A stretch of DNA of 64,000 nt from a virus. This document shows, one piece after another, positions 948 through 62,572 of the stretch (its first letter is position 1; every line of letters begins with the position of its first letter). The DNA lies in IMG/VR virus record IMGVR_UViG_3300018495_000103. One strand, written 5' to 3'. The notes under the pieces were generated by a model, which was given only the letters and a program-made list of their open reading frames with translations, was not told the DNA's origin and made no database searches. The translations under genes were made by a program, and so were the position numbers.

Positions 948-1517
948 TTACTTTTGTCCTTGAGCGAATCTGCGTCCGCTCTGGACCAAAATCTCCTTGA
1001 CGTTGTCTTCTAAGTCGCCTTCAGTATTGTTGATAAGACCGATATAACTAAAATCAATATCTTCAAAATCATTGTAATCAGCCTAAAAACGTCTTACAAC
1101 TTCTCTAACGTCAGGGTCTTCTTCTCTGTTTAACTGGCGCAATAAACGAATCTTGTCATTGGTTTGAATCCAAAAGACAATTACATCACAATCCGGACGA
1201 GCCAAGAGAGACTCAACGCCTGTGGGATTGAATACGCCAATATTGATTACTCCATCGCTGCGGACGGAGTCATAGCTGGTGCCATAGAACCAGTCGTTGA
1301 AAACGGTACACTCTAGCATCTCTCCATCAAGAACTTTCTATCCAAATTTTTCTGGAGTATAATAAAAATAATTGACACCATGTGCCTCACCCTAGCGCAT
1401 AGGGCGAGTGGTACAGCTAATAATTTCATGGAGGTCAGGGTTGGCTTCTATTACCGCCTACATTGTACGGTCTTTGCCAGACCCAGCTTCGCCCATTAAG
1501 GCAATAATTTTGTACAT
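948..1517 (-). CDS. gmk: guanylate kinase (189 aa) containing 4 in-frame TAG codons
   Basis: Track ORF 1083..1319 is the C-terminal fragment. Reading through TAG gives MYKIIALMGEAGSGKDRTM*AVIEANPDLHEIISCTTRPMR*GEAHGVNYFYYTPEKFG*KVLDGEMLE...YGTS. This carries the P-loop, the S-TTR-R-GE-G-Y-F motif and the FLE-a-v-YGT motif of Gmk. One TAG sits where E. coli Gmk has Q (LIQAL). Ends with TAA at 948-950. Confidence 0.7.
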
Positions 1518-1741
1518 ATGTCAACTTCCTCCTCAAATTCGTATTCTAATTTGCCGGGAAGTTCACCCTCCCAGAATGTTGCATGACCATCGCAATCGGG
1601 ATTCTCACACTTATAAGGATATTGTGCTGGATAAGTAGTGAGACAAATGCCAGTGGGGATTAACTCCCCACCGCACTTATCACAAATTGCTCTGGTTGTA
1701 TAAATATTTTTTACCTTATATCGTTTAAGCATCTTCCTCAA
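1496..1741 (-). CDS. zinc-ribbon protein (81 aa)
   Basis: ORF track. CxxC...CxxC...C-D-C pattern. TAA stop. Overlaps gmk start and polymerase stop. Start may be a later Met. Confidence 0.4.
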   Translation of the reverse strand: MRKMLKRYKVKNIYTTRAICDKCGGELIPTGICLTTYPAQYPYKCENPDCDGHATFWEGELPGKLEYEFEEEVDICTKLLP

Positions 1742-4700
1742 TGCCTCCTTGATAACGAGAGTCTTTCAAAATCAATTCTCCATTAGGAAGAACTGCATCA
1801 ATTTTATATAGCTGGTGACCGCCCGTAGAAGCATATTTCTTAGACACGAAATCATCACCAGAACGAATACCAGTAACCACAATCATATTTCCACGATTAA
1901 ACCAGGATTTCTCCATAATCTTCTTCGTACCATCTGCTTGACGCTCAGAAATCTGCTTATCAAACATTGTGAAATATTCTTTTCTAAACTTGACATTTAC
2001 AACACCTGTTGTAGTCAAAATAGTTACCGTACTCTTTGTCTTATTCTTTGCAATGCAAGTGCCGCAGATACGATTCAGTTTAAAGATATGAATATCTTTG
2101 CCACCCTTTGTAAAAGTCTTTTCAATTACTGGGTCTTCTGGTAGACTATAAAAGTCTACAAAACCATATCTATCATTATTGATATGCTCCAACTCATGCT
2201 CGTGATAATAGAAACATAATACTTCCATTTCCCATGCGGAAATAGTTCCTTTAGCATATTTCTCCCAATCTTGCATAAAGATTTCAGTATTTAAAGCATC
2301 CAAGATAGCTTCCTTATCAGAGGCAATCCACTTTCTAAATACATCCATATGCTTCTGGTAGATATTATCCCAAGCCTTGGTTTTTACATACCAAGATAAG
2401 TTATCTGTTTCCATAATATCATCACATTCAATTTCATGTAAGAACGCAATCGCTCTTTCATCAAGACTATACATTCCTGCATATGTATACTTATCAGCTT
2501 TTGTAATTGCTTTTAAGTATCTGTTGAACTCATATACTCTACGAGCCATAATCTGTTCAGGAGTCTTTTCAGGCAGAAGATTATGTCTAATTAAACCACC
2601 CATATTCTGCAAAGTGATTCGACTCTTCTTATCACAAGTCTCCCAAATATACCAGGCCATAGTAAACTTTCTATCTTCCATACTATCAAAGGCTCCACCC
2701 TTGATTAGAGAAATCATAGCTTGCTTACCAGGTTTAACCTTATTCAAGAAGTCCTTGGGTGAACTATATGGTCTATTCGCAATGATTGCCGCAACCACAT
2801 CATCACCTACATTTAACATACCCTTTAGACCGAATAGAATTCGATTGTTTTCAACATCGGGAGCGAAACCGAACTTAGACTTATTAATGTCAGCTAAACT
2901 AACCTTAATGCCGGCGGCTTGGATGTCTCCAATCGCCTTTGCAATCTTACCATAATCGGTTGCCGCAGTTCTACGAATTTTCGCAGACTTATCGGGCAAG
3001 TCAATAAACTTAACTCCCTCTGCTAAATCTTGTGCTTCTGGAGCATAAATATCTACAATCTCTTCTTCACTATTATCTTCCAAAGAACCACTGTTAACAA
3101 TCAAACAAGCAGTATTCCAATAAATTGGATTGAAATTAATAACGAAATAAATAGACTGAATACCTACGAATGAGTAAGGTAGAGAGTGGTTCAAGCTAAA
3201 TGCATAACCCAACTGAGGTGCAATCGCATTCTCCCAGAAATAGTTTGCCACTCGAACGTCATCAAAGTTTCCATATACCTGCTCACGCAATTGAGGAATC
3301 TTACTCATTTGTTTCTTACCAACAATCTTTCTTGCATTGTTAGCTTCACCCAGAGTGAAACTAGCTACATCCATTAGAAGTTCCATCATCTGCTCCTGGA
3401 GAGCGCAACATCCCCAATACTGGTCACAATGCTTATGCATTAATGCTTTTTGTTCGGGAGTGAAGTTTGCTTTATCCATTTCTCGGTCGAAAACATCCAA
3501 ACCTTGATGCTGAATACGAACATATCTATCCTGTTGAGACTCTTTATCTTTTTCAGACATAAGTCTCATCATAGCGTTCGCCGCAGTCATCTCCATAGGA
3601 TTTTGAGGCTTTAATTTCTTCGCAATTGCCAAGCCGACGCCAGTACTGAACTGGAATACATCCAACACATCACCGGCCGCAAGATGGTCCCAAATGCGTT
3701 GGTCGCTTGTATCAATCACTTCTGGATGAATATACTTATTATAAAGGTCACGCAGACCCATTTTTTCAATTACATTATCTTCAACAAGTAACTCAAAACA
3801 TTTGATAATCTTATCAGAAATTTCAGTTACCAGGAAGTCATACTTGGTATCACCGGCGGCCTCAGCCTTATGCAGGTCATAACAAGTAATTAAATCTCCA
3901 CTTGGAGTTCTCATAAAACTTGCAGTTTCAAATGGGTCATCACCATATAGAATGACACCAGATGCGTGAGAGGAACGCTTATTAACCAATCCTTCAATGG
4001 ACATAATAATATCCAACAAACCAGGATAGTTGTTTACCTCACGTATGAACGGAGCCACGGGTCGTCTGTCTTTTTCTTCGTTTCCATAGACGACATCATT
4101 GATTGACCAAAGGAATCCTCGTTCCTGTGGCACCAGTGAAGACATGTATTGTGCGAGGTCGACATCGATTCCATCTGGGTAATCCTCGCTTCTATAACCG
4201 CGGCAAGCCGTGAGTATAGCTGATTTCGTACCCTCTGTTCCGAAGGTTGCAACCTGGACCAAACCAAGTTCTCCACGTTCTCTTCGAATTGCGTCAAAGA
4301 TTGCGGGTCGCTTTGATGGTGCAAGGTCAATGTCGATGTCGGGCAATTCGGCTCTTTCCTTGTTAAGGAAACGCCAATAAGGTAAGCCCCATCTAACTGG
4401 GTCGAGCTGGGTAATGCCCAAGAGGTAGTTAGACAGAAATCCTGTGGCCGAGCCTCGACCTGGGCCAACAATTGAGCCACATTCCCAGAATAGGTCGATA
4501 TAGTGTTTGAAGGTGTTAAAATAGGCGAACAAGCAGTCATCTAATTTCTCTCCAATATCTTTAATAACATCAGCCTCAGTCTCAAGACGAGTTAAGTATT
4601 CATCATATAATAATAAACCTTTTTCCTCTAAAGACTTTAGACACTCATTTATCCAATAACGCTCTTGAATATTATCGCTAGTTAAAAGTTCATTCAGTAA

Positions 4701-62318: not shown

Positions 62319-62330
62319 TAAACAAAAAAA

Positions 62331-62356
62331 AGGCAGACTCATTAAGAGTCTGCCTT
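62331..62356 (-). terminator. terminator hairpin (AGGCAGACTC/GAGTCTGCCT) overlapping stop of 62342..62572
   Basis: T8 run on the minus strand, then the conserved promoter. Confidence 0.65.
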
Positions 62357-62572
62357 AATATAATTGTCTGCATTAACAATAAAATCAATCATGTCCTTTG
62401 CTAAAATTTCTTTTTGTTCTAAAGAAATATCTGGTATTGGCATAGACAATATAACCTAATAATCTAGAATGTTTTTGCGAGGAGGGTAAAATGATAAAAA
62501 TCCAAGTGTTACATCTCCATCTAGTGATTCCGCTCGGTAAATTACTTCTGGATTGTTGTCATATAATAACAT
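62342..62572 (-). CDS. hypothetical protein (76 aa) with one in-frame TAG
   Basis: Absent from track. GGAAAGGAG RBS. MLLYDNNPEVIYRAESLDGDVTLGFLSFYPPRKNILDY*VILSMPIPDISLEQKEIL... Stop TAA lies inside the terminator hairpin. Confidence 0.4.

Follow-up and report, generated by a model that had tools for sequence, protein, structure and literature searches.

Gene content of the window and its in-frame TAG codons

The window analysed here is a 64,000-nt stretch of viral DNA (IMG/VR record IMGVR_UViG_3300018495_000103) in which a series of genes carry in-frame amber (TAG) codons that are most likely read as glutamine. It comes from a large uncultivated tailed gut or rumen phage and represents the replication and nucleotide-metabolism module of that phage. 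The G+C content is 41% and essentially all genes lie on the minus strand, each TAG appearing as CTA on the plus strand. The content of the module was assigned from Pfam matches and from the Pfam families attached to the gene calls of another assembly. Replication and repair are represented by DNA polymerase III alpha, an SF1 helicase, DnaB, gyrase A and B, an NAD-dependent ligase and RNase H, and nucleotide metabolism by thymidylate synthase, dihydrofolate reductase (DHFR), guanylate kinase and the start of an anaerobic ribonucleotide reductase. Further genes comprise an NAD-salvage/Sir2/NADAR cluster, a sigma-70 factor, a Thg1-like enzyme, an RNA ligase, a major-vault-protein-like protein, an SPFH protein and two lysin-like genes. 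The genes in which TAG codons stand in frame, including several small open reading frames (ORFs), are the following.

313..534 (-), small ORF of 73 aa; one TAG at 427-429; relatives have TAG (twice), S, W and L at the site
948..1517 (-), guanylate kinase gene gmk; four TAGs at 1458-1460, 1392-1394, 1338-1340 and 1083-1085; Pfam Guanylate_kin (3-176) spans all four
7258..7752 (-), hypothetical protein; one TAG at 7582-7584, with 107 codons open afterwards (P = 0.013)
8707..10443 (-), RecJ-like DHH exonuclease; two TAGs at 10303-10305 and 10228-10230; Pfam DHH and RecJ_OB
13849..14508 (-), zinc-ribbon-like protein, phrog_4680, function not assigned; one TAG at 14473-14475 (codon 12)
16980..17477 (-), dihydrofolate reductase; one TAG at 17280-17282 (codon 66); Pfam DHFR_1 covers 1-163 of 165 aa (E = 1.6e-43), across the site
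18660..19652 (-), transmembrane (TM) segment, coiled coil and C-terminal GIY-YIG domain; nine TAGs at 19509-19511, 19503-19505, 19398-19400, 19269-19271, 19233-19235, 19200-19202, 19086-19088, 18879-18881 and 18849-18851; Pfam GIY-YIG (242-322) and PHROG homing-endonuclease families
31976..33226 (-), PIN-PhoH ATPase; one TAG at 32117-32119, at the Q of GD-x-x-Q-x-D; Pfam PIN_4 and PhoH (217-411)
33210..33464 (-), small ORF of 84 aa; one TAG at 33312-33314; weakly supported
33508..33936 (-), hypothetical protein of 142 aa; one TAG at 33634-33636
36129..36842 (-), metallophosphatase; one TAG at 36255-36257 (codon 196), 41 codons ahead of a TGA stop
53596..53832 (-), small ORF of 78 aa; two TAGs at 53806-53808 and 53665-53667
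58862..59287 (-), hypothetical protein of 141 aa; one TAG at 59237-59239, with 124 codons open after it (P = 0.0065)
62342..62572 (-), small ORF of 76 aa; one TAG at 62456-62458; ORF continuity alone, with no informative relatives

Reading frames and protein domains continue across the TAG codons

When TAA and TGA were used as the sole stops, the window resolved into 89 non-overlapping minus-strand genes. Minus-strand coding density rose from 89.6% under code 11 to 93.3% with TAG as sense (code 15), compared with 87.4% in a control in which TGA was read as sense (code 4). A total of 27 in-frame TAGs was found in 14 of the 83 minus-strand genes of at least 60 aa, and these 83 genes terminate with TAA (60) or TGA (23) and never with TAG, although the lack of TAG terminators partly follows from the ORF definition and is weak evidence. 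An earlier note on this DNA, made from its letters and ORF translations, had proposed at least 12 TAG-bearing genes, which is a reasonable count. Its gene-by-gene list is correct apart from the GIY-YIG gene, which has nine TAGs rather than eight, and the omission of 313-534 and 53596-53832. The 993-nt run of the GIY-YIG gene free of TAA and TGA is as that note described, and re-prediction with translation table 15, one of the checks it proposed, gave the increase in coding density above.

The presence of in-frame TAGs is confirmed, and since independent assemblies are 100% identical across TAG sites, they are not assembly errors. At the left end, an IMG/VR 3300024268 contig (locus L049) is identical over window positions 1-3833, including all four gmk TAGs. 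At the right end, contigs were retrieved by exact-sequence lookup of a window protein; ENA ERZ27248306, ENA ERZ27248370 and JGI 3300022753 are 100% identical over 51452-64000. Among the loci extracted from such contigs, L278 is 100% identical to window positions 59118-64000 and L276 to 51452-63284, and together they extend the sequence 7.8 kb past position 64000. A difference of about 137 bp between ENA ERZ27248306 (L276) and window positions 63284-63422 is an indel in the spacer between the genes 62844-63065 and 63145-63984. On the left side, contig IMGVR_UViG_3300024268_000034, with loci L049 and L282, continues past the window for 102 kb. The phage genome is estimated at no less than about 166 kb, and is probably 170-190 kb.

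An opposing explanation is that the TAGs are genuine stops. The genes would then be pseudogenes, split genes or the result of sequencing errors, and it would be by accident that the frames beyond the TAGs are open. Under the standard code, 14 TAG-terminated ORFs among about 95 would be unremarkable, and six short open runs after the TAG, in the phoH tail and the 33210, 33508, 36129, 62342 and 313 genes, are individually non-significant (P = 0.15-0.26). Taken together, however, the 14 genes stay open for 1823 codons after their first TAG, giving a joint log10 P of about -32 when the +1 frame of these genes, in which 4.0% of codons are TAA or TGA, is taken as reference. Pfam domains also cross the TAGs in Gmk, the RecJ-like protein, DHFR, PIN-PhoH and GIY-YIG, and tblastn alignments with relatives continue through the TAG sites. 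The earlier note had described motif-complete read-through proteins ending in TAA or TGA. The TAGs are identical in four independent assemblies, no gene contains an in-frame TAA or TGA, dozens of relatives have CAA, CAG or TAG at the same sites, and the phage encodes cognate suppressor tRNAs, which are described below. For the seven well-supported genes the genuine-stop explanation is effectively refuted, and overall it is highly improbable.

The strength of the case differs between genes. Seven are strongly supported, namely gmk, recJ, DHFR, phoH, the GIY-YIG gene, 13849 and 33508. The RecJ-like frame remains open for 531 codons past its first TAG, and in 13849-14508 the PHROG match (residues 56-210) lies past a TAG that is followed by 207 open codons (P = 2e-4), with glutamine the best-fitting residue at the site. 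Glutamine is likewise the best fit in 33508-33936, where relatives have Q (8), E (8), T (2) and TAG (1). Around five genes rest on few relatives. Two relatives reach across the TAG site of 7258-7752, with N and E, and this gene had no family match in Pfam or PHROG searches; two have F and L at the site of 58862-59287; and three have TAG, Q and K at that of 33210-33464, where the open run has P = 0.26. The 62342 and 53596 genes are supported by ORF length alone. Another assembly calls a 77-aa T7 Gp5.9-like product (PF25708) at 53596-53832, and the sequence there is identical in three independent assemblies. In the 36129 gene the Metallophos_2 domain (6-158) stops before the TAG, and seven relatives are mixed at the site, one of them with TGA, leaving a tail that is possibly coding. 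Some additional TAGs in stop-to-stop ORFs, among them those ahead of 7780-8667, 45115-45633, 45652-46485, 50632-52050 and 25805-26209, lie upstream of the likely starts and are non-coding.

Very long plus-strand frames run antisense to real genes (for example 33959-35695, 42111-43901, 47373-49667 and 57904-59088), reaching up to 765 codons with TAG read-through. They carry TAGs themselves, and a naive longest-ORF caller can wrongly choose them.

TAG occupies positions held by glutamine in related phages

Some 270 related loci, collected through four anchored IMG/VR scans, formed the comparison set. The conserved columns that hold a window TAG (PhoH-370, RecJ-72, GIY-258 and GIY-268) are all glutamine or TAG columns in relatives. 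At PhoH codon 370, 22 relatives have Q and 5 have TAG (27/27), and the peptide spanning the site, with TAG read as Q, is IIDGDCKTQVDDIHF. RecJ codon 72, directly before DSDCDG, is Q in 23 and TAG in 12 of 38 de-duplicated relatives (35/38); before de-duplication (n = 61) the codons were CAA in 36, CAG in 6 and TAG in 16. In the GIY-YIG gene, 27 of 32 relatives have Q (18) or TAG (9) at codon 258 and 24 of 32 at codon 268 (Q 17, TAG 7); a GIY-YIG peptide spanning a TAG site, read with Q, would be CYVGQAANLADR.

The same preference holds over larger sets of sites. Across the 18 testable window sites, weighted equally, the substitution score is best for Gln (-44.6), ahead of Glu (-55.0) and Lys (-57.9). 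In the opposite direction, 475 de-duplicated in-frame TAGs of relatives were aligned with the window, 35% of them opposite a window Gln; their substitution profile is again best for Gln (-2.33), with Lys next (-3.04). In the first 158 loci TAG stands opposite window Gln in 40% of cases, compared with 46-50% for genuine CAA and CAG codons. In-frame TAA and TGA occur in these alignments only 15 and 9 times, respectively. As a separate observation, the in-frame TGA of relatives is opposite Trp in 3 of the 9 cases, and some clade members may use other recodings.

The earlier note had placed several TAGs exactly where homologs have glutamine, a claim that proved partly selective. It is exact for PhoH, where the TAG aligns with the Q of the GD-x-x-Q-x-D motif in PDB 3b85, and within the phage clade it also holds for RecJ-72, GIY-258 and GIY-268. 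It does not extend to Gmk, to DHFR or to cellular RecJ, in which position 72 is Y or H. The gmk TAG after the P-loop had been equated with a Gln of E. coli Gmk; that Q is present but is one variant, and the four best solved structures have K, K, K and E. In relatives the four gmk sites are polar and variable (K/R/Q, E/D/Q, E/Q and K/S/G/Q), and DHFR codon 66 is A/N/Q/S/N in the best solved structures and K/G/T/N/Q in relatives. Because these TAGs fall in variable columns, alignments of Gmk, DHFR and RecJ to solved structures are undecided on the amino acid.

Two adjacent CUA tRNAs carry the acceptor-end determinants of tRNA-Gln

The window itself has no tRNA gene, as the earlier note stated. 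The search of the rest of the phage that it proposed identified a tRNA array past the window end, on the gene strand and upstream of the window genes, with the order Ser(UGA), CUA, CUA, Leu(UAA), Gly, Lys, Lys, Met and Cys. The two adjacent tRNAs with a CUA anticodon lie about 6.1-6.3 kb beyond position 64000, equivalent to about 70,130-70,300 in window numbering.

L278 1512-1586, tRNA-CUA of 75 nt; Rfam tRNA model 47.1 bits (threshold 29)
L278 1587-1683, tRNA-CUA of 97 nt; Rfam tRNA model 54.2 bits (threshold 29)

Of the 80 related loci of the first anchor scan, 44 have a CUA tRNA in this array, and over all loci fetched 64 have one. A tRNA search near the polymerase gene in 60 relatives gave none; the array is at the other end of the window.

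The bacterial tRNA-Gln identity set consists of G73, U1-A72, G2-C71, G3-C70, G10 and U34/U35/G36/A37/U38, and its acceptor-end part is also read by the amidotransferase (PMC9976931). The acceptor end of the 97-nt tRNA has U1-A72, G2-C71, G3-C70 and G73, and that of the 75-nt tRNA a U1-C72 mismatch followed by G2-C71, G3-C70 and G73; the Gln acceptor-end determinants (G73, weak 1:72 pair, G2-C71 and G3-C70) are thus present in both. The weak 1:72 pair with G73 is found clade-wide in CUA tRNAs and is shared with the tRNA-Gln of these phages, as opposed to the G1:C72 of their Ser, Leu, Tyr and Lys tRNAs. The Gln determinants of the anticodon are absent, a CUA anticodon necessarily having A36, and position 10 is G in the 75-nt tRNA and U in the 97-nt one. 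Isotype assignment by overall sequence similarity was rejected, as the CUA tRNAs group together and the next types (Trp, Asn, Ser and Gln) are inseparable. From the acceptor-end determinants, we infer that the CUA tRNAs are charged with Gln. A host enzyme would do so, either glutaminyl-tRNA synthetase (GlnRS) or a non-discriminating glutamyl-tRNA synthetase (GluRS) followed by the amidotransferase GatCAB, and the charged tRNAs would then out-compete host release factor 1 at UAG.

The tRNAs bear on two further explanations in which UAG is a sense codon. In the first, UAG encodes pyrrolysine, or Lys, Trp, Leu or Tyr. ARAGORN labels the genes 'tRNA-Pyl(cta)', and Lys has the second-best profile in relatives. 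The ARAGORN name is given to any CUA tRNA from its anticodon only, though, and neither tRNA departs from the usual D loop (GG) or T loop (GTTCGA); both match the general tRNA model of Rfam. No Pyl-related Pfam match was obtained among about 57 scanned window proteins, and over 475 sites Gln has a profile advantage of 0.7 log units per site. We give this explanation virtually no weight. In the second, decoding is ambiguous, with Gln inserted alongside Ser or Glu. Seryl-tRNA synthetase makes use of a long extra arm and of G73, both of which the 97-nt suppressor has; an indirect pathway in the host might leave tRNA charged with Glu, for which the profile is second- or third-best; two structurally different CUA tRNAs are adjacent; and in relatives where no type but the long-arm one was seen, Ser is opposite TAG at 8%, compared with about 4% overall. 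That Ser excess rests on 5 of 61 sites, however, and the same relatives still have Gln as the dominant residue (38%). Every conserved column is Gln, and both tRNAs have a weak 1:72 pair (U1-A72 and U1-C72), unlike the G1:C72 of the phages' tRNA-Ser. Ambiguous decoding is therefore considered very improbable. The reading of TAG as a glutamine sense codon is supported with high confidence by three independent lines of sequence evidence, these being the domains that extend across TAGs, the codon comparison with relatives and the CUA tRNAs.

A number of other features concern the tRNAs. The two CUA tRNAs abut without a spacer at L278 1512-1683, L276 1635-1806 and L277 733-898 (75 plus 91-97 nt), with their order reversed in L277. 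The Thg1-like enzyme of the window (55263-56117) could in principle repair the mismatched U1-C72 end of the 75-nt suppressor. A YqeY-like protein (45115-45633 (-)), whose GatB C-terminal-like tRNA-binding domain scores 27.0 bits, exactly the Pfam threshold, was considered as a charging cofactor and rejected, since no more than 13 of 76 related loci have it and the closest relative lacks it. L278 3358-3441, which lies between the two tRNA-Lys genes of the array, gives a partial match to the Rfam OLE RNA (RF01071; 53.5 bits, gathering score 50; model positions 439-592 of 616) that is possibly spurious or a fragment. Relatives have unusual tRNAs with an apparent 4-base anticodon 'taaa' (L152 4220-4293, L154, L156 and L157), with UUA (L106 1025-1097) or with UCA (L250 3616-3691), possibly ochre or opal suppressors and 8-nt loops.

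Long CUA tRNAs carry an extra hairpin resembling the anticodon arm of tRNA-Gln

The long (85-99 nt) CUA tRNAs of the clade carry an additional hairpin in 11 of 11 cases, the 11th having been mis-called by ARAGORN. Long CUA tRNAs are located at L278 1587-1683, L277 733-823, L089-L091, L098, L111, L136, L138, L148, L250 19637-19735 and L258. The hairpin follows the CUA anticodon arm, precedes the T arm and consists of a 3-5 bp stem and a 7-nt loop of the form N-U-[C/U]-U-G-A/C-N, which resembles the tRNA-Gln anticodon loop in having U33, CUG or UUG and usually A37. Extra-arm loops include CTCTGAA, CTTTGAA, TTCTGAG, CTCTGAC and GTCTGCT, while the true anticodon loop is always CTCTAAA. Among 153 other long tRNAs from these loci, a hairpin of this kind occurs in just 1 (Fisher p = 4e-15). 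When IMG/VR was scanned for the pattern, at least 41 matches fell within long CUA tRNAs, among at least 120 matches listed. In 33 distinct arms the two inner pairs are formed in 33/33, with three and four pair types, and the stem covariation score of 0.562 compares with 0.187 in shuffles (0/500 reach 0.562) and at most 0.146 in slid controls. The hairpin itself is well supported.

A functional role for the hairpin is a more tentative matter. As a decoy identity element within one molecule, the extra arm might provide U35 and G36, which the CUA anticodon lacks, such that the GlnRS of the host, or its GluRS with GatCAB, would accept the tRNA, which would make it a previously undescribed kind of tRNA. 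This suggestion is plausible but on balance doubtful. Another possibility is a 'two-headed' tRNA, with either of the two arms able to take the anticodon role. In relatives where only the long-arm type was seen, TAG is still opposite Gln (38%). The searchable papers on code-15 phages make no mention of a variable arm or a second anticodon-like loop, and the Gln-like extra arm may be a new observation. One paper describes 'intronic sequences' in tRNAs of recoded jumbo phages, and these may be the same objects seen via another program. Tandem suppressors, one of them with a Gln-like arm, provide a testable hypothesis for how a CUA tRNA could be charged with Gln by host enzymes that read the anticodon.

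The E. coli amber suppressors supE (a tRNA-Gln with CUA) and su7 (a tRNA-Trp with CUA that is charged with Gln) offer a comparison. In these, as in the phage tRNAs, the body that carries the CUA anticodon has a weak 1:72 pair together with G73, and in E. coli it is Gln-charged and inserts Gln at UAG. Whereas supE and su7 are weak mutant alleles in cells where TAG is still a stop, the phage has dedicated and conserved tRNA genes and no gene that needs TAG as a stop. A further difference is the extra arm of one phage suppressor, mimicking the Gln anticodon arm.

TAG use differs between gene classes

TAG accounts for 27 of the 622 Gln-like codons of the window (4.3%) and is unevenly distributed. 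The 11 genes of at least 450 aa have 2 TAGs in 230 Gln-like codons (P = 0.0024), or 0 in 208 when RecJ is left out (P = 1e-4). A typical large replication gene is the following.

1725..5687 (-), DNA polymerase III alpha (SPbeta YorL-like), 1320 aa; 39 Gln codons, zero TAG

At the other extreme, TAG makes up 9 of 19 Gln-like codons in the GIY-YIG gene (47%, p = 3e-8), the most recoded gene of the window, and 4 of 9 in gmk (0.44; p = 4e-4 against the window average). The GIY-YIG gene is directly upstream of thyA and DHFR, and its domain order is atypical of a homing endonuclease, GIY-YIG being C-terminal and preceded by a TM segment and a coiled coil of about 200 aa. Left of the window (L049, L282) is a divergent module with three large Gly/Ser/Thr/Asn-rich proteins, one of which matches virion-structural and tail families. 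In the structural module of L282, of which about 9 kb was sampled, TAG is 14 of 63 Gln-like codons (22%) against 27 of 622 in the window (Fisher p = 3.8e-6).

None of the large essential replication genes carries TAG, and for them the host machinery alone would suffice. The accessory genes (gmk, DHFR, RecJ, PhoH and GIY-YIG), and especially the virion genes, would be made at full length only after the suppressor tRNA accumulates. Such graded TAG use, which follows the model published for such phages, would partly fit the reported pattern, in which early replication genes are translatable by the standard code and late genes need the code switch. A stronger version, which refines the glutamine reading rather than opposing it, gives UAG a dual meaning, stop early in infection and Gln later, with TAG-bearing genes delayed or made as two isoforms. 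It would fit the absence of TAG from large replication genes, its concentration in the GIY-YIG gene and gmk and its five-fold higher frequency in structural genes. Borges et al. report the same pattern, and in Agate phages a homing endonuclease that is preferentially recoded. The 36129 product, with its TAG past the catalytic domain, could conceivably exist in a short and a long form. The tRNA array is, however, upstream on the same strand, such that suppressors may be made early, and the lysin-like genes are without TAG. A dual meaning is possible but somewhat unlikely.

Two lysin-like genes are concerned.

7780-8667 (-), TM segment and phage tail lysozyme domain
29567-31900 (-), 777 aa with Peptidase_M15, tail lysozyme, Amidase_2 and SH3 domains

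Considered as a whole, it is very probable that the phage uses code 15, with UAG translated as Gln by its own CUA tRNAs, charged by the host, and with TAG use graded by gene class. A number of points weigh against this explanation. About half of the window TAG sites lie in variable columns with which Gln is merely compatible (gmk x4, recJ-47 and DHFR-66). The TAGs in 36129 and in the small ORFs could be true stops. The CUA tRNAs lie outside the window and are linked to it through identical overlapping assemblies only. Neither a release factor nor a glutaminyl-tRNA synthetase gene was present among the approximately 57 window proteins scanned. Finally, the two lysin-like genes have zero TAG, which does not suit a simple model of lysis-gene recoding.

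Relation to other recoded phages

Recoding of TAG to Gln (table 15) with phage suppressor tRNAs is established in crAss-like, Lak and other gut phage clades, and in other phages code-15 recoding has been validated by proteomics (PMC9523058). The phenomenon described here is real and is already known from other gut phages. Code-15 phages were surveyed by Borges et al. (bioRxiv 10.1101/2021.08.26.457843), and the present phage resembles those of the survey in having in-frame TAG at Gln positions, a phage CUA suppressor tRNA and a host presumed to use the standard code. Recoding is partial in both, with 17% of genes here and clade means of 26% to 71% there. Structural genes are recoded more than replication genes, and a gene of the homing-endonuclease type is among the most recoded, as in the Agate phages. 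In two representative genomes of that survey replication is standard-code, recoding being variable across clades, whereas here nucleotide-metabolism and repair genes carry TAGs. Lysis genes are preferentially recoded in published code-15 phages, in contrast to the lysin-like genes here, and no 'code-change module' with release factor 2 or an aminoacyl-tRNA synthetase was seen in the window.

A nucleotide search of GenBank phages with the polymerase gene returned only short 75% matches. By PolIII alpha protein the nearest GenBank phages, at 38% identity, are Bacillus phages of the SPbeta-like type, phages of Enterococcus and phAss-1, a phage of about 136 kb from the human gut that is placed in the proposed genus Phassvirus (Babkin et al. 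2023, PMC10607447; GenBank OQ749652). PhAss-1 is alike in having a PolIII-alpha-type polymerase, many tRNA genes, TAG read as Gln and no dedicated synthetase; it has three tRNA-Sup(CTA) genes and TAG in 28% of its ORFs. Its PolIII alpha is only 38% identical, however, and no closer than those of the SPbeta-like Bacillus or Enterococcus phages. Membership in Phassvirus was rejected given this value and the lack of any nucleotide match among GenBank phages, and the phage falls in a separate and larger clade that has 130-200 kb contigs. Many relatives are present in IMG/VR, where their contigs are 100-200 kb long. A scan of genome collections for the host returned only phage-like contigs, binned into metagenome-assembled genomes (MAGs) of Clostridia or 'Mollicutes', which is a weak host hint; related contigs were binned with Acutalibacteraceae, Clostridium and Lachnospiraceae MAGs. 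From this binning the host is probably a Clostridia bacterium.

The clade is large and common in gut and rumen metagenomes, and adds to the UAG-switching phages a lineage with an SPbeta-type polymerase that is probably associated with Clostridia. Recoding in it reaches nucleotide-metabolism and repair genes, beyond the virion genes. In practice, standard-code gene callers split or truncate at least 12 window genes, and many more in the structural region, and the clade needs translation table 15.

Other gene clusters in the window

Three further groups of window genes are described for completeness. A cluster at 50632-58797 (-) suggests RNA or tRNA repair together with transcription control, and contains the following.

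50632-52050 (-), RNA ligase
52659-53567 (-), RNase T-like exonuclease
53880-54782 (-), sigma-70 factor
55263-56117 (-), Thg1-like 3'-5' nucleotidyltransferase
56300-57040 and 57919-58797 (-), metallophosphatases

A block at 38787-47280 (-) is devoted to NAD metabolism and the handling of ADP-ribose and may counter NAD-depleting host defences. It encodes a cytidylyltransferase-like protein, an AAA_28 (NadR-like kinase) protein, NADAR, NAD synthase, NAPRTase/NAMPT, Sir2, a phosphoribosyltransferase and an isochorismatase-like nicotinamidase. The protein of 838 aa encoded at 47373-49889 (-) matches the shoulder and repeat domains of the eukaryotic major vault protein (PF11978 and PF17795) and is conserved clade-wide, and near this vault-like gene a 502-aa SPFH/flotillin-like protein is encoded at 34118-35626 (-).

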